Positions 178-61,330 of a stretch of DNA of 61,330 bases are shown one piece after another. The stretch's first letter is position 1; every line of letters starts with the position of its first letter. The notes under the pieces are model-generated. The model made no database searches. It was not told where the DNA came from and was given only the letters and a program-made list of their open reading frames with translations. This DNA is from Rozella allomycis CSF55 (taxonomy: Eukaryota): assembly GCA_000442015.1 (NCBI GenBank), contig KE561300.1, positions 124,001-185,330 of the forward strand, in the 5' to 3' direction. Position numbers and translations under genes: made by a program.

Positions 178-2831
178 ATGGCTACGACCGTACCTACGGG
201 AGCTTTATCGTCCTTGACTTTGTCTGACCTTCCAAAACGCCCTGATTATGGAAAGGTGGGTAAAAAGATACGTTTGAGAGCAAATATGCTAAAGGTAGTA
301 ATTTGTAAATAAGGCATAATAGATCCCTTCTTTTACCAATGGTACTATTTATCACTATGACGTGAACTTTGTTGGAGTTAGAAGTGGTGAAAGGTAAACT
401 TTTAGGTGGTCATCGACGGTAGGCGTATTTTTACTGAATTTCTTGCCCAATTTAAAGAGATTCATTTAAAGGGGATTAGTGTAGCGTTTGACGGAAAGAA
501 AAATTTATATACTTCTGCTAAAATTAATCGAATTTCTGGTAGACAGCCTTTGGTTGTTGAGTTTACAATTCAGGATGGCGCTAGGAAAAAAGATTTTAAG
601 ATTGAGATAAAACATGCAGCTGATGTAAACATGGCTGTACTCCATCAATTTTTTGAGAAGAGAATTGGAATGGTTCCCCAAGAATGCATTCAAGCATTGG
701 ACGTTATCATTAAACAAGGTCCATCAGTTAGTGGAAGATACACTTTGATAGGTTCATCAATGTACATGAGAGAGAATCCAGCTTCGTTAGGTAGTTGCAT
801 CGAAGTGTGGCCAGGGATATTTTTATCTGTGAGAGCAACACAAAGTGGACTTGTTTTGAATGCTGATACTGCAAACAATGCTTTTCTTGAGCCGTTGATG
901 ATATTAGATTGTGCTGCTAAAGTTGTTGGAGCAAGAAGTGCGTCTGATTTGAATTGCAAGTGGCATCCTGATGATATTAAAGAACTTGAGCGAAAATGGA
1001 GAGGAACACAAGTTCAAGTGACTCATTCCAATATTCCAAGAAAATACAAAATATTCGGGATAAAAAATATGTCTGTTAGAGAAATCAAGTAATTCTGTGT
1101 ACTTGTAAAAATATAGATTTAAGATGGAAGATGGAACGAATGTGTCTGTCTATGATTATTTTCAAAATCATTATAATAAGAAATTGGAATTTGATAAATG
1201 TCCTTGTTTAGCTGTTGGGCCTGAAGGCAAAACATTTCTTCCAATGGAAGTTTGTAAAATTGTGCAAGGGCAGCAGTAACAATACCTACAATTATCTTGT
1301 TTAGATATCGCAAAAAGTTAAATGAAGAACAAACGACGAATATGCTTGCTTTTGCTACTTTGAAACCAGAGGCTAGATTTAATCGCATTAGGACCAACAT
1401 GGCGCCAATGGTTGCAAACATGTCTGAAAATCTGAAAGGATTTGGAATAAATCTGTCTAATCAATTCTTGGAATGCGAAGGCAGAGTTTTAGATCCACCT
1501 GTTGTTCATTTTGGTGCAAATTCAACTTCAAGACCATCAGGAGGTGTTTGGAACATGAAAGACAAAAAATTGAATAGCACTGGAGCAGTTGAAAGTTGGG
1601 CTGTCGTTTCGTTTGATAATCGCTCTCGTCCAGATAAAATTTATGAATGGTTGGATGAATTTGGCAAAGTTGCTAGAAGTATGGGAATGGATGTTAAGTC
1701 AAGCAAGCCTCCTGTTCTCTCTGGTCGTCCAAATGAAGTTAAGAATGTCTTAAGAAAAGCCATTGATGATGCTGAGAGAATGTTCAAGAAGCCTTGTCAA
1801 TTTCTTCTTTGCATAATGCCACCCAGTGGTGTTTATGAAGATGTCAAAAAAATTATGGACTGTGAATTTGGTAAAGTGTCTCAATGCATGAAAGGAAAAC
1901 ATATTGGTAGACCAAATGGTTCTTACATGGCCAATCTTTTGCTCAAAATCAATTCTAAAATGGGCGGGGTAAATTTCCACTTGGACAAGGGTGTACCTTT
2001 TATCCTCCAAGAACCAACCCTGGTCTTTGGCGCAGACGTCACACATCCAGCCCCTGGTGAAAATTCATGTTCTATTGCAGCTGTTGTTGGTTCAACTGAT
2101 CCAAAGGTCACAAGATTTGTTTCTTCATTGGCTATTCAAGGGTCCAGGGTTGAAATTATTGATACTTTGAAAGATATGGCCAAAAATATTATCATGCAAT
2201 TCCGCGCCAAAAACAGAATTTTGCCACGCAGGATTATATTTTATAGGGATGGTGTAAGTGAAGGACAATTTAATGCAGTTCGTTCAAGCGAAATTTCTGC
2301 TTTGAAGAGAGCATTTGGAGAAATTGAAAAAGATTACAATCCAAAGCTCTTGTTTATTGTCGTTCAAAAGAGACATCATGTGAGATTTATGGCTGACCGT
2401 GCTGATTGTGACAGAAGTGGAAATGTGCCAGCAGGAACCGTTGTTGATAAAGAAGTCACTGCCCCTGATCGTTTTGAATTTTACTTGAATTCCCATGCTG
2501 GGCTTCAAGGTTGCAGTCGTCCGTCTCTTTATACTGTTATTTGGAATGACTTTCCTACGCTTACTTCTGATCAAATTCAAGAAATGACGTACAGAATGGT
2601 AATTACTTAAACTTGCGATGACTTTAGTGTTATACTTATGTTCGTTGTACGCGTAGTGTTTCTGTGGTTCCACCGGCTTATTATGCTCACCTTTTAGCTT
2701 TCCGTGCTCGCTTTCTTTTTAACGTTGAAAATGATCCTAATCGTATTCTCTCCCGTGAATATGTTGAAAAGGTTAGAAGTAAAATTCCACCTCTTTCTCC
2801 GGACATGATGAGAAGAATGTTTTACGTTTAA
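178..2831 (+). CDS. AGO1: Argonaute (N, PAZ, MID, PIWI), 5 introns
   Basis: [11 protein letters not shown]-terminus, [38 protein letters not shown]-terminal MFYV*. Introns 295-322, 394-422, 1089-1116, 1276-1304, 2599-2627 (28-29 nt) restore one frame. Confidence 0.97.
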
Positions 2832-2911
2832 CCTTGAATAAACATGAATTCACGTGCAAAGTATTTAATATTAAGGTTAACAATGTTTTATTTATTGCTT
2901 GCAACATTTCT

Positions 2912-5360: not shown

Positions 5361-6431
5361 ATGAGTAACACGAATTCGCATTTATCTGGTGTTGCTCAGA
5401 CAATGCTAGATACCATAACATATCTTTCAGACGAATCAAAGAATCCGTCTCCAATTTGCAGCTCGTCCTGTATCAAACACCGATCATCCTTTCAGGTTGG
5501 CTTTGTTGAAGACAGGAATAAGAGACATCGTAGACATATGGAAGTAATTGTTCAAAAATCGTCTAATCAAACAGGATGCACATTGTTATGAATATGATTT
5601 TGGTGACGTCCCAGATCAGGGATTCTTTGCTATTTTTGATGGTCACGCTGGTCATGCTGCTGCAAAGTGGTGTGGTGAAAATTTCCATCACGTAAATAAC
5701 TTTTAGTGGCATTTTAGCTATTCTTAAAAAATCTCATCGAGCATTCCGAATTAAGCATCCCAGAGGTACTTAATCGGACGTATCAAGATGCAGATTCAGT
5801 TCTTGATGAAAAAAATGGTTATAAGTCTGGATGTACTTCAGTGACCTGTTTCTTAAGACATGAACGAATTTTGGTTAAAGATTCAGATGGAAGTTCAACA
5901 CCAGTCACTCGGACAGCAGTACGTCTATTCTTCAAACTTTCTAGAGAAAGCTGTATACTGCTAACGCTGGTGATGGAAGAGGAGTATTGTCGTAAGTATT
6001 TAATAGGTATAAAATAGTCGATCGGGCAAAGCAATTCGTTTAACATACGATCATAAAGCCAGTGATCCAACAGAAAAGCAGAGGATTATTGAAGCAAATG
6101 GACATGTTATAAATGACAGAGTTAATGCCGTGCTTGCTGTAACTAGAGCCCTTGGTGATTCTTACTTAAAGGAACACGTAGTAGGGCTTCCATTCACTAC
6201 CGAAGTTGAGCTAACTAAAGATGATGAATTCATTATTATTGCCTGTGATGGAGTAAAGGCGGATTTTCGTTTACATAGCTTTGGGATGTGTGTTCAGATC
6301 AGAATGCAGTGGAGTTAATTGGGCACATTGAAAATCCTCAAGAAGCAGCGAAAAAACTGTTGAATTTTGCATTAGAAAATTGTTCGACTGATAATATATC
6401 CGTGATGGTTATTCGCTTAAATTCGAAATAA
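5361..6431 (+). CDS. PTC1: Protein phosphatase 2C (Ptc1-like), 5 introns
   Basis: [39 protein letters not shown] and TDNISV motifs after removing 26-31 nt GT-AG introns. Confidence 0.93.
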
Positions 6432-6451: not shown

Positions 6452-8306
6452 TTATTTAGGTTTGGAGCTAGAAGTTGTAGTTGTGCCAGTTTTCTTCTTT
6501 TCTTCGACTTTTGTAACGTTGCTCGAGGATTTATTTCTATCGCTATTCCTGCGGAACAATCCTGGCCTTGGTGGCGGCATTTTTTCATTTTTCAAGTCTG
6601 CTTGCCTTGCTTGCTCAAAGGATGTAATAGCACGTTTGATACCCTCTGCACCGAGTGCAAGCCTTTTGAATTAAAGATGTGACCTTACATTCCTGCTGGA
6701 AGTTGCTCTACTCCCATGGCGTGTTTCAGTTCATTTATACTTTCTCTTTCAGCACTGAATTTCAAAAAATGATTCGCATTACCGTAGAACAGAAAATACC
6801 CTTGCCATTTTCCCGATAGCTTTAATCTTGTTCCTTATAACGTCCTTGCGCAATGCCTTTTCATTTTCTTCGGTATCTTCATCGTAATCGTCAGTCTTTT
6901 CATTTTCATCTTCTATCGCTATGTGGTACTTTAAACAAGCCCATACTTTCATGATATATTCCATCAGCCGCCAACTCCTCTTTCGTGCAAGAATTCAAAA
7001 CTGCCATAAGCATTTCCGTTACTTTAAAGTACTTTTTAAAATTTTACTCTTTTCACCTACAAAAGGCAAGGACCATGTAAATACATTTATAAAATTTGGA
7101 AGCCAGTATGGATGCTGTGAGCTATTGAATTGCCTTATATTCATCACATTGTTTTCATATTTCATGATGGCCGCTGAATGGATGCAATATGAACCAATTA
7201 CCTTTATTGTTATAGACATCAAGGTAATTTGGTGCTGAAAAAATAGTAATCACCGAAGGGAATCCTGTTGATTTAGTTTTTCTGTACATTCTATAACCAG
7301 CATCTTGGGCCTCATGTGCACGGATCATGCATAAAAGATTATTTTTATCAAGAAAGTTGCATACAGCCTGATAACTGTAGAAAAAAGAGCACCCTCTGAC
7401 ATGATTATGAGTATAGTATTCATTTGACTTTTCTTGGCCATAATCTTCTGTAGGATCAGACCATAATATATCACACATCAGACCATGAGTTGGTGGCTCC
7501 TTAAATCTGTTTAGCTAATTAATCTATTTCTTTCTCATTACATTTCTAAGATCTTCGAGGGTGGTAAGTTCAGGTGAAAGACCCCCGTGGATACAAAAGA
7601 ATTGCTTGTTCATAATAGCAGCCAAAGGCAGGGCACAACAAGAATCCATCGCAGCCTCATAAACTTTTTCAGAGTACTTATGCTTGCCTTTTAAACACAT
7701 GAAGGAATGTTACACTCCAGTTTAAAAGTGAAATAGTCCGTCAAATGTCGACATTCATGGTTACCACGTAAGAGATAGATCTTTTCTGGATAATGAATTT
7801 TCAATGACCATAAATAAAGCATGCACTCCTATGAAGAAAGTTATATGTTTACTTCTATGGAAAAGTATCCTCTATCGACGTAATCGCCAAGAAAGAGATA
7901 TCTCGTATCACCAGGTGTACCCCCAACTTCAAAAAGTTTCATCAAGTCATAGAATTGTCCGTGGATGTCACCGCACACTGTAATAGGCGCGTCAACATCT
8001 AATATATTGGATTCCTTTTTTAATAGGTCCGTTCCCTTTTGTATGATAAATATTGCCTGATCTTCTGTTAGGCGCCCTTCTTGGAGGAAATGCTGTTTTA
8101 AAAATTCATGATCTGGTTTTCCATTCAATGATTTAGGAAACACTTGCGAATCAGAGGGGACCAAATTTGTTGGCGGGGCAACATCAGCTTGACATGACAT
8201 TTGTGATATTACCTTTGCACACCCGCTCTGTAGTTGGGACTTTGTCGATTTCAATCCATGAATTAACAAAGACATTTATCTTTGGACTAGCAGAATTTGT
8301 TGACAT
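6452..8306 (-). CDS. CNA1: Calcineurin catalytic subunit A, 9 introns
   Basis: [36 protein letters not shown], calmodulin-binding [19 protein letters not shown] and autoinhibitory [13 protein letters not shown]. Confidence 0.97.
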
Positions 8307-8704: not shown

Positions 8705-10522
8705 TTAGACGAATGGTTCCAAGTCGATTTCCAGAGCAGAGCAAACAAATGGAATTTCATAATTTTTCAATACTTGAGGATGAAGAATGCCAAAGTAACC
8801 GATTTTAGAGCCCTTGTAAATAACGTCCATACGCCTTGACGGAAACAAGAAAGGCTCGTCAGAGGGAACAACAGAATAATCATCGAATGAAACATTTAAA
8901 ACAAGCATAATACGATCTAATAAACCATGGATTTCCTATATATTTAAAAAGTAAAACCTTACTTCGTGACCGGATGTCTTATTGCAATACAAGGCAGCGA
9001 TTTTCCTTTCATTACGAGCTCTAACATCTTTGCTCTCATCTAGCAAAACTACGTCCGCAACTTCAAAGAGTTTAATAGGCAATGGACATTTGATATTGCT
9101 GAAGAGTTTCTTCAAAAGGCCTGGAAGAAGGCTGGTACGAACAACTTGATATTCAATTGACTTTGGATTTGACAAAGTAACGGCGGTCTTTCCATCATCT
9201 TTTTTCAACAAGTCATCAAAGTTTTCGGCCAAAGAGCACTATTTTTTAATATTTGATATTAAATACCAACGTGAGGGTTAAACCTTCAGTATAACCTGCA
9301 AAAGCAATTTCTCTTCGAATTGCGTCAGTTATTTTATTTAACATGAAAGGCTTTCCGATGGTGTTTGTTGGAGGCAAGACTTTTGGAATGTTGTTGTAGC
9401 CATAAGCGATAGACAAATCTTCACAGATATCGCAAGCATGAAGAATATCGCTTCTTGTTGGTGGAATGATCGCTACAACTTCATTTTCATTTTTCACGTA
9501 AGAATCCAATGACATTTTTGTCAATAGCTCGGAAGCTTTTTCAGCAGTCAAAGGAACTCCAATAAATCTTATCAATTCTTTTAATGGCACAATTTCTTGT
9601 CTGTAATCGAATTCAGGATGGATGAGAGTCTTCTCATCATACTTGATCGTCACTTGTTCAACTGTGAACTTTTCTTTGCAATATTCGGCAAACATACACA
9701 CCATTGTGTCTAAAACCATTTTAGCCTTTGTAAAATCAGTTGCAGTACACTCAATAAATACATTTTTGGTACTTAATGTAATTTTGCTATGATCGCCATT
9801 AATGATTGGTGGTAGTGATAACACAGTTCCATTAGCGTCAGTGATAACTGGAAACACTGGAGAATCCCTGATTAAATGCAGAAAATGTTTCAAGTGATTA
9901 TCAGTCTAAAATACATAACAATAATCAACTTTACTTGGTAAAATTCCATTAACCTGTTTCCGTCCATCTTTTCTTTTTGATTCAGTGGAACGAAAGAAAT
10001 ATCTTCAGGTTTCTTAGCCTCGTACTTGAAAGGTCCTTGAATAGTATCAAGATCATGAGTTCCAATAGCCACCAATGAACGCTTTCTGCAAAGATTTTGA
10101 TGCAACTTTTCTTGCAAGTAAATAAAACTGGCATAGTTGGTTTCATTAAAAGTAACATTTCTCAAAACAGCAGCAACACAGTATGGTCGAATTACTTTAG
10201 TGGACGCGTCAACTTTAAGCTCCAATTTTGGCGGTATGGTCTTGTATTTCTCGGCTTTGCCTCCAACGAAAATTCGAAGGGCCCTTCCCAAACCTTCAAC
10301 ACATAACAAGTCATAACTAATCAAAAATACAAGATAAACTTACCGATTTGCTGGAATATCAATTTTATAAGCATCCTCAAGGATTTCGTCGACTTCTATT
10401 CCGAAATCAAAGCACAGCAAGTCAAAGTCCTTGTCGCCTACTTAAATCAAAATATAAGAATTACTGTATTCTTTGCCGATACGATCAAATAATTCTTTTT
10501 TCTTAACTTCTATAGAAGGCAT
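8705..10522 (-). CDS. FRS1: Cytosolic phenylalanyl-tRNA synthetase beta subunit, 5 introns
   Basis: [61 protein letters not shown]. Confidence 0.96.
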
Positions 10523-10633
10523 TCAGAAAAAATTCTATCCCCTGTTTAGGAAATATCCGAAACAACAACATGATATGTTCATGTATAAAAATGATTACAC
10601 AATCATATCAAATTTATTGATTTAATTCATATT

Positions 10634-11073
10634 TCATTCTCGGTAAAATAAACTAGATACTGAATTGGAAACTATCATAATTGAAACCAATGTTTTACTT
10701 CTTTCGGTAAGTGATGGCTTTCTTCCTCTTAAATGTAAATCGTCACTTGAAGTACGGTTTGCTCCAAATGGATATGCTATTACATAAAATATATTGTACA
10801 TTACGAAATAGTTCGGACAATGATATGTCTCTTTCATATCTACTTCTTGCATGCACTTGATCATTCCAATGCAATTCTTTTGGATCATAGGCATCATCAT
10901 TGGACTCCAAAACTAATAAATTGTAAAATTAACAACCTACTCCAATGATCTGGTGCATCTGGAATCATAGTAGATTTTTGACCGGACATTGCTAATTTGG
11001 CATCTTCCTTAATCTTTTGTATCATTTCCTTGGTCTTGTCATTCATTTGGGGAGATTTCGTGTGTAAGGTCAT
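10634..11073 (-). CDS. Small hypothetical protein, 2 introns
   Basis: ATG at 11073; two 28-nt GT-AG introns join three exons into one open frame ending in a moderately hydrophobic tail; no homology recognised. Confidence 0.5.
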
Positions 11074-11220: not shown

Positions 11221-12413
11221 TTAGATATCCTTCTTGAGGGTTCCCATAAATGCTTTCTTTTCTTCTGGCGTTTGGAAACGTCCGTGACCAAATTTGGAAG
11301 AAGTGTCGATAAATTTCAAGTTAACCTTTTCAGTAGCAGCACGAGAGGTTGGGGTAATCAAAGACTTTCTCAAAGTGAGAACACGCTTCTTAACACCAAC
11401 ACAGCATCCCTTGATAATCAAGAAGTCTTCATTGACAACACCATATCTTGGAAAGCCACCCATTGGAGTAATGGTTTTCTTGGTCAAATCGTACTCAGTG
11501 GATGCGGAAGCTTCATCACCTTTCTTTCCAATGCGGTAAACCTTCTTGTTAATTTCGGTACGATGATGGTAACCGCGTTGACCAGCACGAGGAACAGAGT
11601 ACATAACACGACTTGGATGCCAAGCACCAATACAAGCAACTTTACGAATACCACGATGAGTTTTTCTTGGAAGTTTTCTGGTTCCCCAACGAGCGGTGAC
11701 ACCTTCATAACCATGTCCCTTGGTAGTTCCAATAACATCTAAAAGTTCATCTTGAGCAATAAATTGTTCAACCTTGACTTCCTTTTCGAAATGAGCGTAA
11801 GCCCAGTCAACTTTTTGAGCAACAGAACCTCCATTCAATTGAATTTCCATCAAATGAGCTTTCTTTTGACCAATCTTCAATTTGCTCATTTGAGTGTGGG
11901 CAAGAACACGGATGACTGTGCAGTATTTCTTCAAACGATCCATTTCACGAGTAATATCCTTAGCACCGTCTTCATATTTCTTTGCATATTTAGTGAAAGC
12001 CTTCTTCTTTGAACGTGTCCAGTTCTTGTAAAAACGACGTTTAACTTCATCAGAAAGATGTTGAGCCCAGACAGTGGTCAATGAACGTAGACCTCTTGGG
12101 GTTTCAAGATATCCAATAACACCAACAATGACCATTGGTGGAGTTTCAATGACAGTAACAGCTTCAACAATTTCCTTCTTGTGCATTTTGGAGCCTGGAC
12201 GATCAAGATCACGAACGACGTGAGTCATACCAGCTTTGTATCCGATGAAAGCAGTCAAGTGGACTGGTTTGCTTGGGTCATCCTTAGGGAATGACTTGCA
12301 CTTTCCGCGATGGCGACGAGAGCGCTTACGTGGAGAAAAGCCAAGAGAACCATGACGTGGAGCTTCGAATTTACTAATATAACAAACCAAATAATAAAAT
12401 ACCGGTGAGACAT
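11221..12413 (-). CDS. RPL3: 60S ribosomal protein L3 (uL3)
   Basis: MSHR + 29-nt intron (12374-12402) + [12 protein letters not shown]; full-length conserved L3 sequence. Confidence 0.99.
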
Positions 12414-12427
12414 ATGAAAATGTGTTT

Positions 12428-29146: not shown

Positions 29147-29147
29147 N

Positions 29148-47623: not shown

Positions 47624-47669
47624 AAGAAACAGAATTTCTTTCTTGAGAATATAGAAGCCGAATAAATGT

Positions 47670-48708: not shown

Positions 48709-48901
48709 ATGTGATCAATCTTCTTTCGAATTTTTCCATGTTGGTATCGTAAATTCGTAATAATCATTGAAGTTTTTAAGGATTAATGATTTTATAGGAG
48801 TAAATACTAAATTTATAGCCTAGAACTTTAAAAGTATTATCAATAATGTTAACAAAATATTGAATAATAACCTCTGTGGCTTGACTCCAAAATTCTTAAC
48901 C

Positions 48902-49899: not shown

Positions 49900-52800
49900 C
49901 AATCTATTTCCATGTACTGACGTAGTTAATTCCGTCCCATCCAATTTAGCCAGCGTGTAACTTCCGTTCCCATGGTGTCGAACAATCATGTAGGGCCCTC
50001 TATAGCGATTCTTGAATTTTCTTCCAACATTGATGGCTCAAAACATTCTTCAAAAATCAAAACCAAATCTCCCTCAATAAATGGATTTTTTCTTATATTC
50101 TTTTTATCATTGTACCATCTCATATTCTTTATTCTCGACTCAACAATATTCTCCTTTGCTATTTCTAAATCTTCTGGCAACTTTGCCAATTGCTTTATTC
50201 TCAATTCCAACAATTCTTCTCTAAAACCGCCACTCTAGCGCATACCACGACAAGATATCCATCTCGGCAGGTAAAATACAATTTCGACCGAACATTAGAG
50301 TAAAAGGAGCATATCCAGTAGACTTCTTTATGGTCACATTATTGGCCCAAAATGCCGAATGGAGATATTCCGGCCACAAACCTTTCTTCTCTTCCCCAAG
50401 CCATCTGCTTAATGCCTTCACAAGAGGCTGATGCCCTCTCTCAACCACTCCGTTCGCCTGTGGGTGATACGCGGTCGTAAATACAGTAGGAATTCCGTAA
50501 TTTTCCAGAAACAAATTTATCTCTTCTTCATTCATCTCTCCATTGTCTGCAACAAATCTTCCCACACAACCATATCTCGCAATGTATACTTTTAGGAACT
50601 TAGCCACTCCAGAACTTTTCTTCGATTTTTAAGCTTTTCCATCAACAAAACCAGTAAGAGCATCCCTAGCGTTTACGAAATAGTTCTCCCCATTCTTGCC
50701 GTTCGGCATCTTTACTAAATCAACGTGAACAATATGTAAAACTCCGGTATTAAATAAATTATGGTTCAATGGTTCTTCGACTGACAACAACTGGCATTCA
50801 ATACAGCTCTTTATATAATTCGCGACATCAATATACATGTTTTCCCAATAATAATTCAAAGTTAACTCTTGTATGTTCCGTCTCTTTCCCTATGTCCTCC
50901 TGTTACTCCTTCATGGAATTCGGCCAGTTATCTCATTTTTAAGTCTTCATCCAGAATCACTCTACTCGGCGGCAAATTAAAAGACGCCGATCTTTTCCAC
51001 AACAAACCATTACTAATAAATAAATCTTGACTCATCATTTTTATTTTTTCAAACTCTTTGTCCGAAAGATGTTCCGGTTTAGATAATGTCATTAAATACT
51101 CGCACAAACTTTACCATATTCCAGTATAATTCGTAAGGTCCAATGTAACATGTCTAACAAATATATCTAAATTCGCAATCCTTTTCTCTTTTAATAGCAT
51201 TGTCATTGCGTCTGCTTCCTTATCAATATCTTCTTTCTCAACACAAGCATAGCGTCTCCGGCTTAACCCATCGGCTTTATTCTTGGCTGTGTCGACATAT
51301 CGTGCTGCAAAATTAAAGGATCGAATAAACGCAATCCACCTAGCACCGTTGGATCAGGAAACTCCTCAGCATTAAACCAGTATAAAAGTGCTCTGTTATC
51401 TACCTCTAACCTAAACTTAGTTCCAAATATATAGGGCCTAAATTTCTTTAAATTATGAACAACGGCGAGACATTCTTTCTTCACAATAGAATAATTCCTT
51501 TCGGTGGCATTGAACAACTTACCTTCAAATTTGCATGGGTGCCTCTTTCCATCTGGTTTTACCTGTTCCAAAATGCCTCCCAATCCGTCCTTGCTAGCGT
51601 CATAGGTGGTCGATTCTCAACATCATTATAGTCTAGCTCTTGAACGATCGGGTCAGAAGCCACAACTTTCTTCAAATATTCGAAAGCTCTCTCGTGCTTC
51701 TCCAACCAAATAAATTCAACATCATTCTTCAATAAATTCAGCAAGGGTGCAGCAAGCGCAGAAAATGAATAAATCAAACTTTTATAATGCTTGACAGTTC
51801 CTCAAAACGAATGTACATCCTTCGTCGATTCAGGTCTGGGCCATTCCAATATTTTCTCCCTGTTTCTTGTACATATCCTTCTGCCTTCGGCATTACACAA
51901 ATAGCTAAAAACCTCAATTTCGGGAACACAAAAAGAACATTTCATCCCACTAACGGTCAGCTTAGAACGCAAAATCCTCTCAAATATTTTCTCCAAGTCT
52001 TCCAAGTGTGAACGAATAAATTTTCGTATTCCATTTTCAACTTCATCGTTATTCGTCGTTACTCTCTCTCCTTTCACAGCAATATCATCTATATATCGCA
52101 TGTTTCCGGAATTAAATCTCGCAGCACTGTTGTGTTCACTCTCTGCGCGACAGCTACTGAGTTCGTCCAACCTTGAGGCAAGCAAGTAACACGAACAAAT
52201 CCAACCGGGGTATTCATGGCGGTCAGATCGCGATCTTTAACGTCGATAGGAATTCGATCAAAAAAACTATAAAAGTCCAACATCGAGTACACTCTTCCCC
52301 CGGCGAATCTTTCACTCATCTTGTCACAATTCGGAATATGTGCACAGTCTCGTATAGTCACTATATTCAGCGGAATAACACGCTGGATCATTCTCAACGA
52401 CCCGTTACGCTTTCGTAGAACAAACCAACGGTTTGCATACGCACTTTCACAATATTCCAGAAATCCGGCGTCCAATTTCTTCCTCAACAACGCGATCACG
52501 TCTGCCAGCTCTTTTGCAACATATTTCGGGCAAGGTCGTTTCCAGGGCGTATGTTCGACAACATGAATTCTCACAGGCTTGAAAATTTCGGATGAAAGTT
52601 TTCCTTTTAAGTTATCATCAAACGTAAAAATACTCTCGTACTTCTTCAATAAAATTCGTAATGCTTCTCGTTCTTTTTCGTTTAGCAACGTCGAACTTGT
52701 TAACATATCCAGCTGTTCGTCTGTTAATTTTCTCATACTCTCTCGTCTCTCAGCAGCCATTTCTTCCACTTGATCTAACTTCACAGCGACGTCTTCAGGG

Positions 52801-55015
52801 ACCATAGCTTGTGGGTGAATTGTCTCGTTTACTTTCTTGTGGCGTCTTTTGTTTCCGCTCGCTCTTCGGAATCTTGTTGACCTTGCCTCTAAAGCTCTTG
52901 GCAATATTCATATCTATCTCAAACAACAATTTTTCACCATTTTTAATAAATTTATTAACGTCATTTTCTTCATTTATCTCAATCTCTTCTCCGAAACTCG
53001 GACTTTTCTCACTAGACTCGACAATTTCTTCCGCAGAATCTTCTTGCATCCTGAACAACTGTGTCTTCGCGGTTCCCTTCCACGCAACCCCGTTCATCAC
53101 GTTACACTTCAGCTGGCACGACTTCCCGTCTGCTCCTTGAATGTCCAGCTGCACATCGCCATTCGGAAAATTCTGAGTTATTACCGATGCAGCACACTCG
53201 AAAGGTTTTCCTAATAAAACATTAAAAATTGACTCCCCTTGCGTGACATAACACGGGACCTCGACTGTCACCCCATGAAAAGTAATGGGTAGTGCATGAA
53301 TGCAGCCAACTGCCATTCGGATTTAACATATTTATGGTCGCCTTAGCGTCAATACCGCCTAACAACTGCAAGTAAACACTCTCACTCATGACATTGATCT
53401 CCGAGCCGGAATCAATTGTCACTTCAACCTCCACGCCGCCGACTTTGGCAGGTACTTTCACAACTTTAGTCCTGTAAATCCCTTCTGACCTAAATCTTCT
53501 CACAATTGCTTCATGCATTTCTTCCACATGCTCCATCTCTTCTTGGCTCACTGCATTCACTTTCACTGCTTCCACAGGTACTCTTATTTTTCAGAAATAA
53601 TGCCAGATCCTTCGAAATACTTGGCGATGCTCCTAAAATCTGTTCAATGCTCATCTCCACCTTCTGACTTAGAATTCTATTCATGATTGCCTTAGTGTCA
53701 ACGATTTGTTCTGCAGGACTCTTGTGCATGGTCTTCTTCTTCATCTCCAAAGCTGGTGGTCTTGGGATCGGCATTGTTTCTGGTAATTTTAATGTCACCT
53801 CCTTCTTATCTATTTTTCGTCTTTTCATTTCCTCATCCAACTCCTCGTTCATCCATTTTGCGCCATCACCTCCGCGTCGATTGTCTCACCTTCTACCTCT
53901 TTCATAATCCTCACGAAGACATCATTCTCACTCGGCATTCTTGGTGCTTCTTGCATCTTGAACAACATTGCTCTTGGCTGGTTAGTCTTCTCCTGAAATC
54001 TTCGCTCAGCTTCAACTCTCATTCCTCCGTTCCCGAAATTGATCTTCAGTCGATTCCCGTCACAGTCGCAGATAACTTTGCTTCCATCTCTCTCAACACT
54101 CTGCACAATCCCATTTTTCACTGCCGCTTCAAACAATAAACAATTCTTCAAATACGGGTTGGTGTCGCCACAGTAAATACATTCATTTGAACGTTGCCCA
54201 GTAGTTACATTTTGCGGTGCTTCCATCATTCGATCGCGCCGTGATCGCCAGCGCCATCGCCTGAAACAGTCCAGAGAGATCTGCAACAGATGCTACGGAA
54301 TTACTTGACTTCGTGACTGCGTGTACAACATTAGCTTCACCCTTCGTCTCCTGAACTTCTTTTTCTTCTACGTTCTCAAACTCGAAGGTCTTAATGTTCT
54401 TTAAGGTCGTCAACAGCTGAGTAGACTCATCGTCGATTTCTTGGTTGTCTTCGATGATGCGTATCAGGGATTTGATGCTCTGCTTCTTCACGTCATCCGA
54501 CGTGTAGTCGCCAAAGACTTTCTTCACTAATGTTTCTGGTAAGCTTAAAAACAGTAACTTCACAAGATTTCTCTCAATTAGTCAACTTCGCTCTCATCCA
54601 TACTCTCGTACATAGCCTTCAAGCTCGACAATAAAATGCTCACATCGTCCGACCTCTTGGCCAGGCTCATAAAATCATCCATTCCGTACTTTACGTCAAA
54701 CTTCCCATACTTGGCTTTTATTGACCTCGTTAATCTTCTAAAACTTCTCCCAAGTGACCTGTTCCTCTTCCGCAGCTCTCACTCGGTCAACCAACTCCTT
54801 CACATCCTCAAACAAATACTTCTCACACATGTACGGAAAGATACTAAACACTTCTTCAATACTTTTGCCTTGCATAACCATCAGCTTCTCGTACTCCCAC
54901 ATGAACTGGCCAACTTTCTTTCCTGCGAAAGGGGTAAAACCACCTTCCACGATGTTCGCACCACTTATGAAAGTGCCAGAAGGGGCGCGCGACTTAGACT
55001 CTTTAGCAGTAGACA
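49900..55015 (-). mobile_element. Degenerate Ty3/gypsy LTR retrotransposon internal region
   Basis: Order gag - protease (IDSGSEIN) - RT (LPQGW, YIDD) - RNase H (ERNYS..KECLA) - integrase (VHVDL, ADNG, YHPQANGVVER); multiple frameshifts; bounded by n49899 and n55016, LTRs not seen. Confidence 0.93.
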
Positions 55016-56377
55016 NCATTTTCCAAATTAACTTGTTAAATATATCAAGAGGATAAACTAAAGATATGAAAAAACGAAATTTGTTTAATGTGTTACTGTT
55101 GTAGCCAGTAGCACCAAGAATTTCTTGTGATTTCTTTGGAGTTTCTTCAGACAAATTCTATTTTTAGTTAATTTATCTATTTCTAGTTATTGTATTAATT
55201 AAATACTTGAATTTCTTTTTCTAATAAGTTTTGAATTCAATTCTCTCCAACAAGTCTCGCATTACTCGTTAAATCGGACGGGGAGTTTATAAGTTAAAGC
55301 TATAGAAAAGTTATAAAGCTAATTGTGGCTAAGAACGAAGATTTAGATGCTAAGGTTCAAGAAATACTTCAAGAAAAAGAAGAACGTACGATATAGAATT
55401 AGAATGTAAGCATAAAGACATTAAATAAATAGATATAATGTATTATTATGTAGGTATATATCAAGCTGGTCTATTAAATAGGAATTGAATTTTAAGAACA
55501 GGAGCTAGATGATATAGCATTGAAATATTTTTGTTGGTCGCTATAAATATCACAACATGTGCCAAGCCACACAAAAAATGTTTTTCTGGAGTCTGTTGAC
55601 ATTTGCTACGATCCTATTTAGAACTTTTGTAGCCGCATCTCCAACTCTTGGATTATCTGAAAGTGAGTTTACACGCAAACTTGACAAGTTTATTCACATG
55701 AAAGACTTGAATGATGTAGACGAAGCCAATGATATGTTAGAATTTATAGGAAGCAATAATTTACCAACAGGAATTCCTTGGAATCAATTTAAGGAAGTCA
55801 CAAATCAAATTTTTGAATGTTTGAAGGCGGAAACTCTTAGACAGCCAGCATGCAAGGCATTTGAAAAAATTGTATCGGTAGATAATAACAAATACTTTAT
55901 GTATAATGGAAGACGAAAATATGATATTAAGCCTTATATGTATAAGTTATTAGAGAACATCAATGAAGCATCCAGGTATTTAGACCAAGAGAGTCTTCTC
56001 TACGTTTACAAAAGTGTTGCGTCTATTATTGAATATGGATATGCTGGCAATAATTTAAGAGATCATGAAAATAATTATGCTAAAAGCATTATGTCTGTGC
56101 CGAATGAAATGATTGAAGAGGTGTGGAAAGCAATTCATAATGACAATACTGAAGGGGTTAATGTTTTGGATGAAAATCAAATTGATAAAATATTAAATAT
56201 TTTAAATATGTATAACGCGGCGCCTCATTATAGTCTTTTTCATCAACATATTTCAAAGAACATATTTGATTTGTTTAGTAAATTTATATTCAATAAAGAG
56301 ATTGTGGATGCGTCTGGAAAAACGGAAGAAATGATGAATGGATTTAGTAAATTTTCTTATTCTTATGTAATCAACGC

Positions 56378-56427
56378 CGGTCAGCGCAACCTCCATGCGG
56401 ATGGCCCTCAAAAGACTTAAACTACCG
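56378..56427. mobile_element. 50-bp insert with CGGT...ACCG ends, flanked by a 12-bp direct repeat
   Basis: tgtaatcaacgc at 56366-56377 and 56429-56440; n at 56428, so it may be the edge of a larger collapsed element or an artefact. Confidence 0.4.
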
Positions 56428-56617
56428 NTGTAATCAACGCTCAAAACTTTGAAGATTTATATTCAATTTTAAAAGTCATTTATAATGACGGAGCAAATAT
56501 TGACAGTTTAAAAGAATTTTTAGAGTGGATGGATTCATATTCTCAGCACATCGAGTCACTTAAAACTATCAATGATGAGGAAATGTTCAAGTTAAGAATC
56601 GCTTGGGGTATCATTAA

Positions 56618-57058
56618 TGTCGTAATGAGGCTCACCATTACGGCTTTATAAATCTAAATGAATGAAATAGAAAGAAACTTAGTTAAGAATAAACGTAAGT
56701 CGTATGAGAACGGATTATCCGTATGTTTATTTATAATATCTCCGAGCCTTTTATCTCGGTTTTATTCTATTAATAGTAATTCAGAGATCCTAAGAGATCC
56801 AGCTTGAGTCAACATCAATGAGTATGAATTCTATGTTGTTTATCACTAATAGAACCTAATATTATCGTTATTGGGGTTATGACTTCGATGTTATCGTCAA
56901 TAACCATGATTATGATTTATGTGTAGGTTTAGTGTAATTTAAGACTCTATGTACTCACTGGATGCAGGTCATAATTATCTTAATGACAACTGGTGGTATA
57001 TTAGGACCCTTATTAGGACATTAATGTCCGTATTACCCTTATTTCGTCAGGTATGACA
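56618..57058. mobile_element. Solo LTR, 441 bp
   Basis: TGTCGTA...TATGACA inverted termini; 5-bp TSD ATTAA (56613-56617, 57059-57063); excision restores ...WGIINNVNLKF. Confidence 0.85.
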
Positions 57059-59489
57059 ATTAATAATGTTAATTTGAAATTTGAGTTCAAGGATTATTAC
57101 AGGCAAGCTAGAGTTTTATTTAATGCTGTAGCCAAATCAAACAGTATATCGGACGAATTCATGGATTATTCAATTGAAATGCATAGGCAAATTATGCATG
57201 AATTTGACGTCGCAAGCTTATCCTCCAATCTCGATTCTGAATTTATGAGTGATTTGAAAGAATTTAGAAAGGAAGTAGTGGATTTTGTTATTAGAATATC
57301 TACTAATAGTAATCGACACATGGTCGTGTGTCGGGAAATGGTGTATGAAGAGATTGTCCAAAAAAAGTTTATTTTGGATGAAGATATTATCAATCTACTT
57401 CCGATTATTTTACGCGAAGATTCTCTAAGTTTTCAAGACGCGTCGACTTTTGAATCTATACTGAGCAATTTAATTGAGAAAAACTTAAAGGATGAAGATC
57501 TTAACAATGAAACTGAATCCGTTTTAAAATTTATTGAATCTCTTGGAGAATTATCACATGTTCACCCCGATCGTTTTAAAGAACTTATGGATAAAGTTAT
57601 TATTGCTTTTGGGCATCAATCTAAAAAAGTTTCCAGCGCTGGTTTAAAAGCATTTAATAGAATATTAAAATCATTTTCTCAAGATATTTTAAGTGAAAAT
57701 GTTTTAGCAAATTCTAGACGATTTTATGAAGAAAGATTAGACTCGACATTTGAACAATTCCTATTTTGTTGTACTGACAAGTTGGATAGTAATTTAAATA
57801 TTTTGATCATAAAATTAGATGTCGATCAACATTCTGAAAGTCTTTATAATTTATTTAAGTTTGCTTTGAACTACGATAAGTCGGATTTACGTCTTAAAGA
57901 AATGACAACAAAATTGTTATTGCAGAGGTTTCCTTTCTTGAAAGAAAATAATCTTGCTGATTGGGTTAATAATCTCGTCAATATTGATATTGAAAATGGC
58001 TTGGAAGCCTTTAGAGGTCATCTAGCCTTATTTAATGAATCCAAGGAAAGAAAATTGGATGGCACAAGGACATGTATAAAGGACACGATTAAAACCAGAT
58101 TAATGGCTGGTGCTGCTTTGGCCATGGGCTTTACTTCCTTCTTTTTCAACAATATTGCTACGCGTCAAGATGTTAGCGCATCTGTTGCTACCATTCCAGC
58201 CAACGCTCCTGTCGTAAGTTTACACCAAGAACCTCAAGAAGCTAAAGGTAGTGTTCAAACACATACTATGAAGCATGCTACAAAGGAAAGCAAAGATGTT
58301 ATCATCTACCAAGATCAAAAACAAGTTATTGGTATTAATATTAATGACCACAAGGTTAACGAAAAAATGCCTAGTCATCAAGCTAAGCCAGTGCCTACAG
58401 AGGATAAAATAATTACAGCCATTCATGGAGATCAAGCCAATGATAATCTCAAAAAGAGAGTCGATGAAATAATAGGCAAAAGGCTTAATAATGGTAATGG
58501 TTTTTCTTTGGCTAAAAGTACTTCAGCGATTACTATTCTTGAAGATAATATTTCTTCTGAGAACTTGCTGGATGCATATAGTCGCGCAACCACTGAAAAT
58601 CAAATGAAGGCTTGGACCTTGACAGAATCCCTTATTGTTCAAGGTCTTTTTTCCATTGCTGAAGGGTAAATGAATTTTCAATCATTGAATTTAGGTTGGG
58701 CGTTTATTTAATACTTTTGTATTACTTGGTCAATGGATTAGCTACTCTTGATTATTCATCCATTTTGAAAAGACAAAAACGTGTACCTCCTGTAGTACAG
58801 GTAGAAGAACCACCAACTAAAAGGTTGCAAATATATGAAGATTCAAATGATCAACCAAACGTTAATCAAAATCAACGTAATGACAGTGCAAACGCCGTTT
58901 TAAATCAAAGTATTGAGAAACCAAAAACTCAAAGTACTGAGGATGTAAATGTTGTTTCAAATCAAAGGAAGGAGGTAGTTAAAAAACAATGCGAAATTTC
59001 TGAATCTCGCGAAAAAGATATTGCTGAAAACAGTGATATTACTCACGAGACTCAACCGATTGACAAAGATTCATCATCCAGCATAGACGAAAATAAATTA
59101 GTAGAAAACAGCAAAGCTGATATGAATGTAGAACTAGTTAACGCAGAACAAGGAAGTAATGACATTGCCAGAAATACAGTCATTATCGTGGGAAGCATTG
59201 CTGCTAGTCTTGGATTGTTAGGTGCTGCATCTCTTGCATACAAGAAGCATAAAAAAGCATCCTTTTAACTTAATAAATCCTATCTGTCTATACTATTTTG
59301 TATTTATCGGACGGGAGTTTACAGAATTTAGGCATCATATGTCGTTTGGTTCTATATAGCCAACTTAAACTGGAATAACTAAGATAGTCGCATATTTATA
59401 ACTCTAAAAATCTTAAAATTTTTAATGATCTTGATCTGTCAATGTAATTCTTTAGCTAGGAAGTGGCACTTCATAAATACGACATCGGT

Positions 59490-61330
59490 ATGTTATCCAG
59501 CCCAGTCAAGCTTGCATTTGCAACTCTAATCTCTGTCCTAATCACTCATTCCCTAGTTAAGGTTACATTAAACCAAAGCTTTTTCTATATAGCACCAATT
59601 CTAGTCAACGAAATTACTCCAGGTAACAATTAATATCTTCGGTTAAAGATGTAAAGTACATTATTGAAAAAGAACACGAATATCTAAAGAAATTTGCATT
59701 TTCGCCTGAATTTTTTGATGAAAGGTTTTGGACTTCAATGGCGACGTCATTAATGTAAAAAATATTCTTCAATATTAAAGCTATCTGGACTCGTGTGATT
59801 CATATTTAAGTGTAAGCAGAGTTCACATTTCATTGTCAAAGTAAGGCATAATTAAGCATTCAATGGAGTGACAGTGCCGCGGAGTTCAATGATTCTGTTG
59901 CTCGACCTTCAGTTATAAGTTTCTTATTTGCGGAAGTATTAAACCAAACTTATCACAAACAATATAATACAAGCATCAGAATTGGAAACTCAAGTTACAC
60001 CTTCCCCTGCGTTCTCAGAGTTCAAATTCCACAATACAGACCTAGAAAAACAGATAAATGGCTAGTAAGTCCCATTATTAAGACATGAAAAGGGTCCTGA
60101 AGATCCAAGATTATTTATGGATCCCACGGGCATCCCTTACGTGGTGTTTAACATGGATCCAGGTCTTGGCCACCGTCGNCGAAAGATGTAAAGTACATTA
60201 TTGAAAAAGAACATGAATATCTAAAGGGATTTGCTTTTTCACCCGAGTTTTTTGATGAAAGGTTTTGGACTTCAATGGCGACGTCATTAATGTAAAAAAT
60301 ATTCATCTTCAACATTAAAGCTATCTGGACTCGTGTGATTCATATTTAAGTGTAAGCAGAGTTCATTTTTCATTGTCAAAGTAAGGCATAACTAAGAATT
60401 CAATGGAGTGACAGTGCCGCTGAGTTCAATGATTCTGTTGCTGGACCTTCAGTTATAAGTTTCTTATTTGCTGAAGTATTAAACAAAACTTATCACAAAC
60501 AATATAATACAAGCATCAGTATTGGAAACTCAAGTTACACCTTCCCTTGCGTTCTCAAAGTTCAAATTCCACAATATCGGCCTAGAAAAACAGATAAATG
60601 GCTAGTAAGTCTCATTATTAAAACATGAAGAGGGTCCTGAAGATCCAAGATTATTTATGGATCCCACAGGCATCCCTTACGTGGTGTTTAACATGGATCC
60701 AGGTCTTGGCCACCGTCGAATGTTCATGTTGAATTTGGCAACAAAAAAGATTGTAGCTCTTCGGATTGTTAACAGAAAGCAAGAGGAATGGGAGAAAAAT
60801 TGGGCCCCATTAATCAGTGAAGGTAACCTGTATTTCGTCCAACAACTGAATCCGTTAACAGTATTAAAGTGTTCCTGGTCAGGATTTTGCACATCTTTAA
60901 TGAGTCATCAAACAAAGATCGGTATTTTAAGAGGTGGGACACCATTTGTGAAATTGGCGGCCGTTGACGAAAACGAAGATTATTATGTTTCACTGGCTAG
61001 GTCAAACGTAAAATGCTTCTCATGTGCACATTCTATATACAGGCCGCACTTCTTCATAATTAAGAAAAAAGCAATGCAATTTACAACTTTGTTTGTCAGT
61101 AATGTGGTTTCATTTTCTGGATTGGTTTTTAACGAGACGGTACCAAATCAAGTTTACAACAGTGACTTAATATGCAAATATAAACGCATTATGATACCTT
61201 ATTCATTGAGCTTTGTTAACGATGATGCTATCGTATCTGTGGCCATACAAGATGTTCAAACAAAGGTGTTAGTCATAAAAGGATTAAAGAAGGAATTGAT
61301 GGCATTAATTCAAGGCGCAAATGATGAAGA
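59490..61330 (+). CDS. Beta-1,2-mannosyltransferase (Bmt, GT91)-like type II membrane protein; runs off the window end
   Basis: N-terminal TM; WTSMATSLIYL...VSRVHFS, GPEDPRL, EKNWAP, PLTVLKC, LRGGT, ARSNVKCFSC..IYRP. Confidence 0.78.
59645..60718. repeat. About 535-bp duplication across n60179 inside the Bmt gene (divergent haplotypes or tandem paralogues)
   Basis: 59645-60178 vs 60182-60718, a few percent divergent by eye, including an intronic indel. Confidence 0.88.

Follow-up and report, generated by a model that had tools for sequence, protein, structure and literature searches.

Narrowly sized, signal-poor tiny introns in a 61-kb stretch of the Rozella allomycis CSF55 genome

Rozella allomycis lies at the base of the fungal lineage, beside the microsporidia, and has a nuclear genome of about 12 Mb. 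We analysed the introns of the protein-coding genes in 61,330 nucleotides (nt) of strain CSF55 (assembly GCA_000442015.1, contig KE561300.1, positions 124,001 to 185,330 of the forward strand), hereafter the window, whose own numbering is used throughout. Nearly all the introns found in it belong to one narrow length peak below about 35 nt: the working catalogue holds 116 introns from 24 genes, 109 of which measure 26-32 nt and 90 of which measure 26-29 nt. This agrees with an earlier note on the same DNA, drawn up from the letters alone, which had counted about 110 introns of 26-32 nt. In our opinion, and with a probability of roughly 0.55, these are GT-AG spliceosomal introns that would have shrunk to the smallest size the spliceosome tolerates, the branch being set by position and the next AG being used as acceptor.

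Introns were predicted with a dynamic-programming gene finder, whose codon log-odds were trained on the 13 longest open reading frames (ORFs) of the window (ORFs reach 824 residues under the standard code); the window reversed, not complemented, served as a control. The minus strand at 49900-55300, which is richer in G+C (40%), is interrupted by many frame breaks and contains an RVT_1 (reverse-transcriptase) domain with an E of 1e-10, is a decayed retroelement where the "introns" of the gene finder are spurious; it was masked in all intron statistics. A prior-free pass, admitting only GT..AG, codon scores, a constant penalty and a flat length prior over 12-48 nt, returned 110 calls: 14, 14, 11, and 8 at 26, 27, 28, and 29 nt, respectively (47 of 110). 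A further 11 calls fell at 30-32 nt and three at 24-25 nt, the other lengths averaging about 1.8 calls each. The same pass on the control gave eight calls, none of them at 26-29 nt. With splice-site matrices added, calls of 26-29 nt numbered 75 out of 171 in the window; the control then had 6 out of 62. The length class emerges without priors, and so do its abrupt lower edge and the motifs at its ends; they are therefore not products of the assumptions of the analysis.

The catalogue is the union of three gene-finder passes, from which calls of 24-36 nt with a GTA donor were kept (142 calls). Sixteen antisense calls or calls outside gene spans were then removed, five donor- or acceptor-ambiguous pairs were set aside, one intron was corrected by homology, and three frame-based introns with a GAG acceptor were added. 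The resulting lengths are 25 nt (2 introns), 26 (30), 27 (23), 28 (21), 29 (16), 30 (5), 31 (8), 32 (6), 33 (1), 34 (3), and 36 nt (1). Introns of 27 nt, a length divisible by three, are not rare in the set (23 of 116), but the gene finder tends to overlook stop-free in-frame introns. Four members are doubtful (23307-23342, 38369-38396, 56430-56454, and 57789-57818). Passes allowing introns of up to 150 or 100 nt were discarded, as they chained genes via spurious long "introns", and a test based on bridging open reading frames was too noisy to be used.

Junctions were then checked by homology. Single exons, identified by Pfam, were used to fetch homologues, and each junction variant, that is, every in-frame GT..AG within about 20 nt, was scored against a hidden Markov model (HMM) of the homologues. 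The exons identified in this way belong to Argonaute, calcineurin A, the beta subunit of phenylalanyl-tRNA synthetase (PheRS-beta), RPL3, GDP-mannose pyrophosphorylase (GMPP), a kinase-like protein, an FSAF1-like protein, CHD1, an mRNA cap methyltransferase, SLBP, nicastrin (weak matches), mitochondrial S18, a TPR protein, a BAH protein, a Methyltransf_16 protein, RRP36, a CRM1-like exportin, and beta-mannosyltransferase paralogues. Homologue profiles or PDB alignments validated 21 junctions in all; all these introns are 25-31 nt long, all start with GTA, and their predicted removal restores a conserved reading frame, as for U2-type GT-AG introns.

The calcineurin A gene (CNA1, 6455-8306, minus strand) was tested with an HMM of 70 homologues, and the spacing of two motifs was measured in the 115 homologues having both. 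The public protein P0121 maps on this gene with introns of 25, 24, 26, 27, 28, 26, 28, 28, and 26 nt. According to our data, its introns are the following:

8188-8212, minus strand: CNA1 intron 1, 25 nt, GTAA..AAG, the shortest validated intron; no in-frame alternative within 18 nt
7826-7852, minus strand: CNA1 intron 2, 27 nt, GAG acceptor, TAG at 24 nt skipped; 27-nt form ahead by 5.5 bits
7688-7713, minus strand: CNA1 intron 3, 26 nt; leads the in-frame alternatives by at least 9.5 bits
7515-7541, minus strand: CNA1 intron 4, 27 nt, AGs at 8, 12, and 18 nt skipped; leads by at least 22 bits
7174-7201, minus strand: CNA1 intron 5, 28 nt; without in-frame alternative, agrees with the public model
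7022-7047, minus strand: CNA1 intron 6, 26 nt; leads by at least 9.3 bits
6919-6946, minus strand: CNA1 intron 7, 28 nt; agrees with the public model, junction not decisive
6755-6782, minus strand: CNA1 intron 8, 28 nt; leads by at least 11 bits
6663-6688, minus strand: CNA1 intron 9, 26 nt; without in-frame alternative

For intron 2, the earlier note had proposed that a GAG at 27 nt is used over a TAG at 24 nt, and motif spacing and PDB numbering support it together with the homology score. The spacing from GDYVDRG to RGNHE is 31 in 113 of the 115 homologues and 32 in the public model, which takes the TAG (7829-7852); moreover, PDB calcineurin chains are continuous over the junction (146 then 147, with no gap). 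The public model is therefore probably wrong at this point, with one extra residue in a conserved block. At the other eight junctions, the public form is the best one, the sole in-frame option or, at 6919-6946, beaten by less than 2 bits, the alternatives of 34 and 37 nt gaining 1.1 and 1.6 bits in a variable region. As for intron 1, the gene scores 925.6 bits with the intron and 915.0 bits with a model starting at an internal ATG, and the exon upstream of it aligns to a conserved N-terminal block; the possibility that this 25-nt intron is a false call concealing the start codon was thus rejected (10.6 bits in favour of the intron).

PheRS-beta (8708-10522, minus strand) was tested with 60 homologues. 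Placed on the gene, the public protein P0241, of 517 residues, gives introns of 42, 60, 29, 79, and 54 nt and scores 645.7 bits; a model with tiny introns of 27, 27, 29, 28, and 27 nt (559 residues) scores 773.5 bits. The introns of the latter are:

10438-10464, minus strand: PheRS-beta intron 1, 27 nt, TAG acceptor, in-frame AAG at 24 nt skipped; ahead of the 24-nt form by 6.6 bits and of the public 42-nt form by 21.2 bits
10317-10343, minus strand: PheRS-beta intron 2, 27 nt; member of the tiny-intron model
9906-9934, minus strand: PheRS-beta intron 3, 29 nt; leads by 11.1 bits and is identical in the public model
9239-9266, minus strand: PheRS-beta intron 4, 28 nt; member of the tiny-intron model (79 nt in the public one)
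8936-8962, minus strand: PheRS-beta intron 5, 27 nt; ahead of the public 54-nt form by 35 bits

Hence, where they are testable, the junctions of the earlier note match the homologues better than those of the public models.

GMPP was tested with an HMM of 21 full-length representatives chosen from 150 returned homologues, and all six of its introns (31, 26, 31, 30, 27, and 28 nt) beat each alternative by at least 6.6 bits:

15413-15443, plus strand: GMPP intron 1, 31 nt, without internal AG; leads by at least 8.8 bits
15548-15573, plus strand: GMPP intron 2, 26 nt; leads by 8.2 bits
15704-15734, plus strand: GMPP intron 3, 31 nt, without internal AG; leads by at least 10.3 bits
15878-15907, plus strand: GMPP intron 4, 30 nt; leads by at least 6.6 bits
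16067-16093, plus strand: GMPP intron 5, 27 nt; leads by at least 25.7 bits
16512-16539, plus strand: GMPP intron 6, 28 nt, TAG at 18 nt skipped; leads by at least 9.6 bits

The ends of the introns were analysed both in the catalogue, where a GTA donor is an entry criterion, and in the motif-free calls of 26-32 nt, which give the unbiased donor figure. Of the latter, 51 out of 58 start with GTA, a triplet representing 26% of all GT sites; their acceptors are TAG (37), AAG (9), CAG (8), and GAG (4), TAG representing 22% of NAG sites. The GTA donors and the four acceptor types listed in the earlier note are thus recovered without any motif model. In the 116 catalogue introns, the donors are GTAA (85), GTAT (16), GTAC (13), and GTAG (2), and the acceptors TAG (67), AAG (25), CAG (19), and GAG (5). 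These introns are lower in G+C (29.7%) than the sequence of the window (32-40% in 4-kb bins), and their splice signals are cut to a few bases at each end: in the 104 introns of 26-32 nt used for the motif tests, information is confined to positions +1 to +4 and -4 to -1, each position from +5 to -5 carrying at most 0.1 bit.

No branch-point or pyrimidine-tract consensus was detected in these 104 introns by motif and position tests, as the earlier note had stated, nor, in particular, any conserved branch motif able to explain acceptor choice. YTRAY occurs in 28 introns, against 28.1 in dinucleotide-preserving shuffles, with no enrichment; CTRAY (2 against 5.4), TAAC (4 against 7.4), and CTAAC (1 against 0.9) behave similarly. 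No 4-6-mer is prominent in the set, even if a very weak signal might go unseen in a sample of about 110 introns. There is no pyrimidine tract before the acceptor, C being at 11% throughout and T reaching 0.39-0.54 only at positions -11 to -18. The one internal feature found is a weak one, a bias near the 3' end towards T and, further on, towards A. Over 109 introns, the frequency of A falls from a background of 0.34 to 0.27 (z about -4) at -11 to -16, where T is 0.39-0.54, and rises to 0.39 (z about +2.7) at -5 to -10. An Rfam scan of the window returned no matches, and thus no small nuclear RNA (snRNA).

As for acceptor choice, the idea that proximal AGs are skipped is confirmed: AGs less than 25 nt from the donor are unused, good TAGs included. 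Within the 116 introns, 108 AGs lie internally, 4-25 nt away from the donor and spread roughly evenly, and the 21 validated introns skip 19 upstream AGs, at 4-24 nt. A rule taking the first AG at or beyond k nt from the donor predicts the acceptor of all 21 validated introns at k=25, of 20 at k=26, of 19 at k=19-24, of 16 at k=27, and of 9 at k=28; it is the two introns with an AG at 24 nt (CNA1 7826-7852 and PheRS-beta 10438-10464) that tell k=25 from k=19. The total coding score of a gene finder working with the rule only did not tell distance thresholds apart. The floor of about 26 nt given in the earlier note has to be lowered to 25 nt, that is, to the length of CNA1 intron 1 (8188-8212), favoured by the 10.6 bits reported above. 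Moreover, lengths are capped above, since none of the 21 validated introns exceeds 31 nt. With AG representing about 4.5% of dinucleotides, a floor alone would leave a long geometric tail; such a tail is not seen, which implies an upper bound too.

GAG acceptors, at 26-28 nt, occur in five of the 116 introns, one of which (CNA1 7826-7852) is validated by homology. The others, together with a candidate of the S18 gene, are the following:

38020-38045, plus strand: nicastrin intron, 26 nt, GAG acceptor, TAG at 24 nt skipped; frame only
39950-39976, plus strand: intron of the TPR protein, 27 nt, GAG acceptor, AAG at 25 nt skipped; frame only
42267-42293, plus strand: BAH-protein intron, 27 nt, GAG acceptor; gene-finder calls
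60605-60632, plus strand: intron of a beta-mannosyltransferase paralogue, 28 nt, GAG acceptor, out-of-frame AAG at 26 nt skipped; frame and paralogous intron 60065-60092
39234-39259, plus strand: candidate intron of mitochondrial S18, 26 nt, with an in-frame TAG at 23 nt; gene finder only

In nicastrin, the 26-nt form opens a 52-codon exon, and splicing at the TAG would lead to a stop after about 21 codons; the reading frame is thus in favour of the GAG, as proposed. For the intron at 39950-39976, in the protein called "SPAG1" in the earlier note (a TPR protein according to Pfam), the frame supports the GAG at 27 nt over the AAG at 25 nt, but an in-frame alternative of 45 nt remains. For S18, the use of a TAG at 26 nt over one at 23 nt had been suggested; the two forms share the frame, and the region is not conserved. 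The introns 38020-38045, 39950-39976, and 60605-60632 all end with AGAG, the second AG being the one used.

The claim that the acceptor is set mainly by the distance from the donor therefore holds as a description (21 out of 21), but not as an exact threshold: a "length ruler", with a floor of 25 nt and some exceptions, is a fair description of the pattern, and is unproven as a mechanism. Distance is not the sole determinant, since the two strands together hold 766 GTA triplets whose first AG falls at 25-36 nt, against about 120 introns. At its beginning (15908-15934, plus strand), one GMPP exon carries a GTA with the first AG at 27 nt, although this stretch is coding and conserved; this decoy implies that a donor triplet plus distance alone do not make an intron.

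The CHD1 gene harbors two pairs of such introns in tandem and one that the gene finder missed:

25710-25739, plus strand: CHD1 tandem pair, unit 1, 30 nt
25740-25767, plus strand: CHD1 tandem pair, unit 2, 28 nt, starting directly after the TAG of unit 1
23207-23233 and 23234-23262, plus strand: N-terminal CHD1 tandem pair, 27 and 29 nt; frame only
25906-25932, plus strand: CHD1 stop-free in-frame intron, 27 nt, GTAG..AAG; missed by the gene finder

Excising exactly 25710-25767 joins residues 637 and 639 of the yeast Chd1 PDB chain, with one split codon between them, and, among the chromatin-remodeller chains in the matches listed, the pattern matches that of Chd1; the outer boundaries of this pair are thus validated. 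The N-terminal pair (23207-23262) lies in a low-complexity region, between open frames of 135 and 46 codons. The joints read TAG|GTAAAT at 25739/25740 and TAG|GTAAAA at 23233/23234, so that both pairs display, inside a longer intron, the AG|GTA regenerated donor expected of candidate recursive splicing. These gaps of 58 and 56 nt may be removed in two steps, via a zero-length exon, or in one step, and the mature mRNA would be identical in the two cases. As for the third element, a nine-residue gap in comparison with human CHD1 falls exactly on the stretch 25906-25932. The gene finder reads through stop-free in-frame introns of this kind, which makes the catalogue an undercount.

In the reading that we prefer, the size minimum would range from 25 to about 32 nt, mostly 26-29 nt. 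The introns are marked by a GTA(A) at the 5' end, usually by (A/T)TAG or AAG at the 3' end, and by a low G+C content, any internal requirement being very weak at most. Splicing would proceed in the usual two steps. The branch adenosine would be chosen by its position, not by a motif, from the A-rich patch lying 4-10 nt before the acceptor, and a minimal donor-to-branch path would limit how near to the donor it can be. The first AG a few bases past the branch would then be ligated, a GAG being accepted as well. The "ruler" would thus be the steric minimum of the path from donor to branch to acceptor, and lengths would be bounded so narrowly above because only a short span is allowed between branch and AG and because compactness is selected for. 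A branch set by position, followed by the use of the next AG, would produce a ruler-like pattern, in which AGs 2-3 nt before the acceptor are passed over. The location of the branch and the quantity actually measured are what we infer from this pattern. Known systems offer some parallels: the branch-acceptor distance in Yarrowia is characteristically 1 nt, and at most 10 nt in 94.4% of cases, according to the data given in PMC13309789, and weak A residues are presented as the presumed branch site of ultrashort animal introns (PMC13644364).

Several observations weigh against this reading. All the junctions are predicted from frame or homology; 95 of the 116 introns come from the gene finder alone, which worked with a length prior in its final pass. 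The signal of the A-rich patch is weak, and a test of its 3' anchoring across length classes gave no significant difference (mean pairwise r of 0.17 from the 3' end and -0.05 from the 5' end). In myxozoans and Dicyema, the weak A's are reported to hold their distance from the 5' end, which would place the branch elsewhere (PMC13644364). The deficit of AGs past the floor (three internal AGs in the 166 available positions at 26 nt or more, where about 6 to 7.5 are expected from the AG density of introns) has only a modest significance, so few being the positions in which an AG could occur. The threshold is inexact, since CNA1 intron 1 ends at an AAG at 25 nt and the frame-based intron 39950-39976 passes over one at that same distance, and an AAG at 26 nt is skipped in the intron 60605-60632, likewise frame-based. 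In the paralogous introns 59841-59874 and 60381-60414, an in-frame GAG at 28 nt precedes the CAG called at 34 nt; this GAG may be the true acceptor of both, and the two GAGs are two of the three AGs found at 26 nt or more. Finally, there are shorter, unvalidated candidates of 17 nt (39389-39405), 22 nt (33060-33081), and 20 nt (36393-36412). The 22-nt one sits in a region rich in N's and may reflect a sequence error.

Other scenarios can be depicted for the same data. The spliceosome might use the first AG lying at a fixed path of at least 25-26 nt from the 5' splice site, largely regardless of the branch and of the base preceding the AG, with a span limit of about 35 nt, so that longer introns could be removed only as successive tandem mini-introns. 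The very sharp onset (from two introns of 25 nt to 30 of 26 nt) points to it, together with the even spread of internal AGs up to 24-25 nt, the use of GAG at 26-28 nt, the absence of validated introns longer than 31 nt, and the exact division of the 56- and 58-nt CHD1 candidates into GTA..TAG units of 27+29 and 30+28 nt. We consider it unlikely, however: the AAGs at 25 and 26 nt are not treated as a fixed path would require, the sole internal compositional signal is anchored to the 3' end, and the tandem pairs could equally be single introns of 56-58 nt. Furthermore, the chemistry of the spliceosome needs the branch first, and a branch defined by position fits the data equally well; a ruler from donor to acceptor and a minimally spaced branch followed by the next AG predict the same pattern. 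A bolder version of the same idea, a two-sided molecular ruler that would excise only units of about 25-35 nt at the first AG past a fixed donor path, nearly blind to branch and acceptor, with longer introns built as chains of abutting mini-introns, would be a counterpart, reached independently in the fungal lineage, of the nucleomorph and ciliate systems; we regard it as doubtful.

It is also conceivable, with a rather low probability, that acceptor choice is sloppy, both proximal and distal AGs being used as in NAGNAG sites, and that nonsense-mediated decay (NMD) and selection on the protein leave only the productive form visible. Frame and homology detect the productive isoform only, and the AG density at 20-25 nt from the donor shows a dip (20 observed, about 28 expected), as if AGs near the threshold were disfavoured. 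In Paramecium bursaria, alternative 3' sites are described among the commonest regulated events, 479 out of 512 being frame-shifting (PMC12862383), and short microsporidian introns are reported to be spliced inefficiently (PMC13644364; PMC6349667). With 108 internal AGs in 116 introns, however, their frequent use would waste many transcripts, and the sharp onset of lengths would still require a physical cause. Lastly, the tiny introns might be an artefact of gene modelling, if the acceptors of the public annotation were the true ones (the TAG at 24 nt in CNA1 and the introns of 42-79 nt in PheRS-beta), given the introns of 24 and 25 nt that P0121 shows when mapped and those of 42, 60, 79, and 54 nt shown by P0241. 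This is very improbable in the light of the score of the public PheRS-beta model, which lies far below that of the tiny-intron one, of the motif spacing that the public CNA1 model breaks, and of the same length class being obtained by a finder without motif model or length prior. Thus, GT-AG introns reduced to a steric minimum, with a branch set by position, are still the reading that we favour.

Signal-poor tiny introns are already known in Paramecium, nucleomorphs, dicyemids, and myxozoans, and Rozella adds another member to this list. Paramecium and other ciliates resemble it in having, as described, a narrow peak below 35 nt, GT..AG ends, reduced signals, introns lower in G+C than exons, and an intron-rich genome (PMC12862383; PMC8997360; PMC6009652, citing Jaillon 2008); the median length in Paramecium is 24-25 nt, and the same sources describe the recognition of its tiny introns as poorly understood. 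In P. bursaria, the median is 24 nt and the minimum 15 nt (PMC12862383), whereas Rozella has its peak at 26-29 nt and its floor at 25 nt. Unlike the ciliates, Rozella is a fungal relative using the standard code, and one of its CHD1 introns, of 27 nt, is stop-free. The nucleomorph of Bigelowiella natans, with introns of 18-21 nt, is presented as having, like Rozella, only a GU-AG motif, no discernible branch A and a very narrow length window; these introns are reported to be spliced efficiently (PMC6009652). Rozella introns are about 8 nt longer and belong to a free nuclear genome, not to a 370-kb remnant nucleus. In myxobolid myxozoans and Dicyema japonicum, parasites like Rozella, medians are 22-27 nt, introns are below 30 nt, the 5' and 3' motifs are reduced, and the pyrimidine tract is described as missing or very short (PMC13644364). 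In these animals, the weak A's recede from the AG as introns lengthen (PMC13644364), whereas the signal in the roughly 110 Rozella introns is weakly anchored to the 3' end. The passage of that paper (2026) naming the lineages with introns below 30 nt lists ciliates, microsporidia, and dicyemids, and not Rozella.

Closer relatives differ more. In Encephalitozoon cuniculi and other microsporidia, the sister lineage, introns are very few, whereas Rozella has 2.5 per kb of coding sequence (PMC8476143); features of the microsporidian type, such as a conserved, extended 5' splice site and a branch motif near the acceptor, are missing from the window, where GTAAGT opens only 4 of the 104 introns, no branch motif is found and about 120 introns lie in 61 kb. 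The fungus Yarrowia lipolytica has a very short branch-acceptor span, AGs just before the acceptor being unusable there, in introns of ordinary length with a strong ACTAAC in 67.5% of cases (PMC13309789); Rozella has no such motif. Our literature searches on introns and splicing in Rozella retrieved no study of splicing signals or acceptor choice, except for a remark in PMC6349667, where two introns of about 30 nt in the S23 gene are said to be without the microsporidian 5' and branch motifs; for Paramicrosporidium, the same paper gives an S23 intron longer than 100 nt. In a fungal set that includes Rozella, the intron medians given reach down to 29 bp (PMC8042348).

The remaining genes and predicted introns of the window are listed below; introns whose donor or acceptor is ambiguous are given with both ends.

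160-2828, plus strand: Argonaute, gene-finder introns 394-422, 1089-1116, 1276-1304, 2599-2627; Pfam Argonaute/Piwi on exons
5452-6413, plus strand: unnamed gene, gene-finder introns 5470-5495, 5544-5574, 5692-5717, 5919-5944, 5992-6017, 6253-6278
10600-11060, minus strand: small unnamed gene, gene-finder introns 10672-10698, 10777-10804, 10913-10940
11221-12426, minus strand: RPL3 ORF, 401 residues, 100% identical to the NCBI entry "60S ribosomal protein L3 [Rozella allomycis CSF55]"
12875-15130, plus strand: two unnamed genes, gene-finder introns 13041-13071, 13325-13351, 13533-13559, 13619-13650, 14188-14215/14219 (ambiguous), 14336-14362, 14510-14541, 14651-14676, 14805-14832, 15018-15043
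21990-27587, plus strand: FSAF1-like and CHD1 genes, gene-finder introns 22050-22077, 22267-22293, 22622-22649, 23307-23342 (36 nt, doubtful), 23390-23413/23418 (ambiguous), 24546-24574, 25046-25075, 26215-26244; Pfam domains on exons
27664-28786, minus strand: mRNA cap methyltransferase, gene-finder introns 27973-27998, 28048-28075, 28104-28131, 28283-28313, 28412-28437; Pfam PF03291 on the first and last exons
within 33993-36655, plus strand: unnamed gene, gene-finder introns 34067-34093, 34294-34319, 34342-34368, 34482-34507, 34596-34621, 34803-34828, 35030-35057, 35124-35149
within 33993-36655, minus strand: SLBP (Pfam match), gene-finder introns 35490-35516, 35579-35610, 35724-35754
within 36558-40840, plus strand: nicastrin (Pfam), gene-finder introns 37334-37362, 38204-38234
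within 36558-40840, minus strand: small gene, gene-finder introns 38598-38627, 38710-38738, 38958-38983
39542-39569, plus strand: gene-finder intron of S18
39825-39856, 40038-40064, and 40370-40395, plus strand: gene-finder introns of the TPR gene
within 41024-49677, plus strand: BAH gene, gene-finder introns 41102-41130, 42806-42832
within 41024-49677, plus strand: unnamed gene, gene-finder introns 44484-44509, 44693-44720, 44829-44860, 45111-45137, 45270-45298
46347-46372, 46513-46539, 46597-46622, 46946-46974, 47136-47162, and 47220-47245, plus strand: gene-finder introns of a duplicated gene
47709-47734, 47910-47938, 48051-48078, and 48449-48474, minus strand: gene-finder introns of the Methyltransf_16 gene
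48800-48823/48834 (ambiguous), 48965-48993, 49010-49042, 49378-49405, and 49524-49552, plus strand: gene-finder introns of RRP36
within 55617-61328, plus strand: exportin-like gene (Pfam CRM1_C), gene-finder introns 56430-56454 (25 nt, adjoining an N), 56776-56802, 56822-56852, 56934-56967, 57789-57818, 58666-58694
59300-59331, 59623-59648, 59755-59780, 59841-59874, 60065-60092, 60292-60320, and 60381-60414, plus strand: gene-finder introns of the beta-mannosyltransferase paralogues (Pfam BMT)

In Argonaute, two in-frame GTA donors at 295 and 298 compete for an intron ending at 322 (plus strand; 28 or 25 nt), and in nicastrin two GTA donors out of frame with each other, at 37916 and 37924, for one ending at 37949 (plus strand; 34 or 26 nt); donor choice at 295-322 and 37916-37949 may be subject to the same length window. 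A 68-nt Argonaute intron (2589-2656) was replaced by the 29-nt one at 2599-2627 in later gene-finder passes. The 3' end of nicastrin (38340-38530, plus strand) shows a +1 frame shift near 38360-38370, both frames being coding-like up to there, and the second one runs to a hydrophobic C-terminal helix and a stop, with no space for an intron; this may be due to a 1-nt assembly error or to an unrecognised structure. The intron called at 38369-38396 is doubtful, the stretch being coding in another frame.

In the S18 gene (stretch 39260-39405, plus strand), the exon with the S18 domain opens directly after the TAG at 39403-39405. It could be reached from upstream through a 17-nt GTAC..TAG, a 41-nt GTG intron or a 172-nt intron from the first exon, none of which has homology support; for the 17-nt candidate such support was rejected, as the conserved motif lies inside the downstream exon in the PDB alignment. 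Two tandem duplications (46316-47600 and 59500-60640, plus strand) bear paralogous introns. Among them, 59755-59780 and 60292-60320 differ by a 3-nt indel (26 and 29 nt), and 60065-60092 and 60605-60632 have the same length with AAG and GAG acceptors, respectively. Finally, the window contains thirteen single N's, eight of them within 29.1-33.8 kb (29147-33771), where confident genes are few.

Public gene models mishandle tiny introns: the PheRS-beta model loses 42 residues and 128 bits, and that of CNA1 gains one residue in its core. Published intron statistics and orthology sets based on the Rozella reference may be skewed as a consequence. As to the organism itself, microsporidia have kept a handful of motif-rich introns, and Rozella is intron-rich. 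If its introns are recognised mainly by length, signal-poor tiny introns would have had an independent origin among relatives with strong branch motifs, and Rozella would be useful for addressing the question of what the minimal substrate of the spliceosome is.

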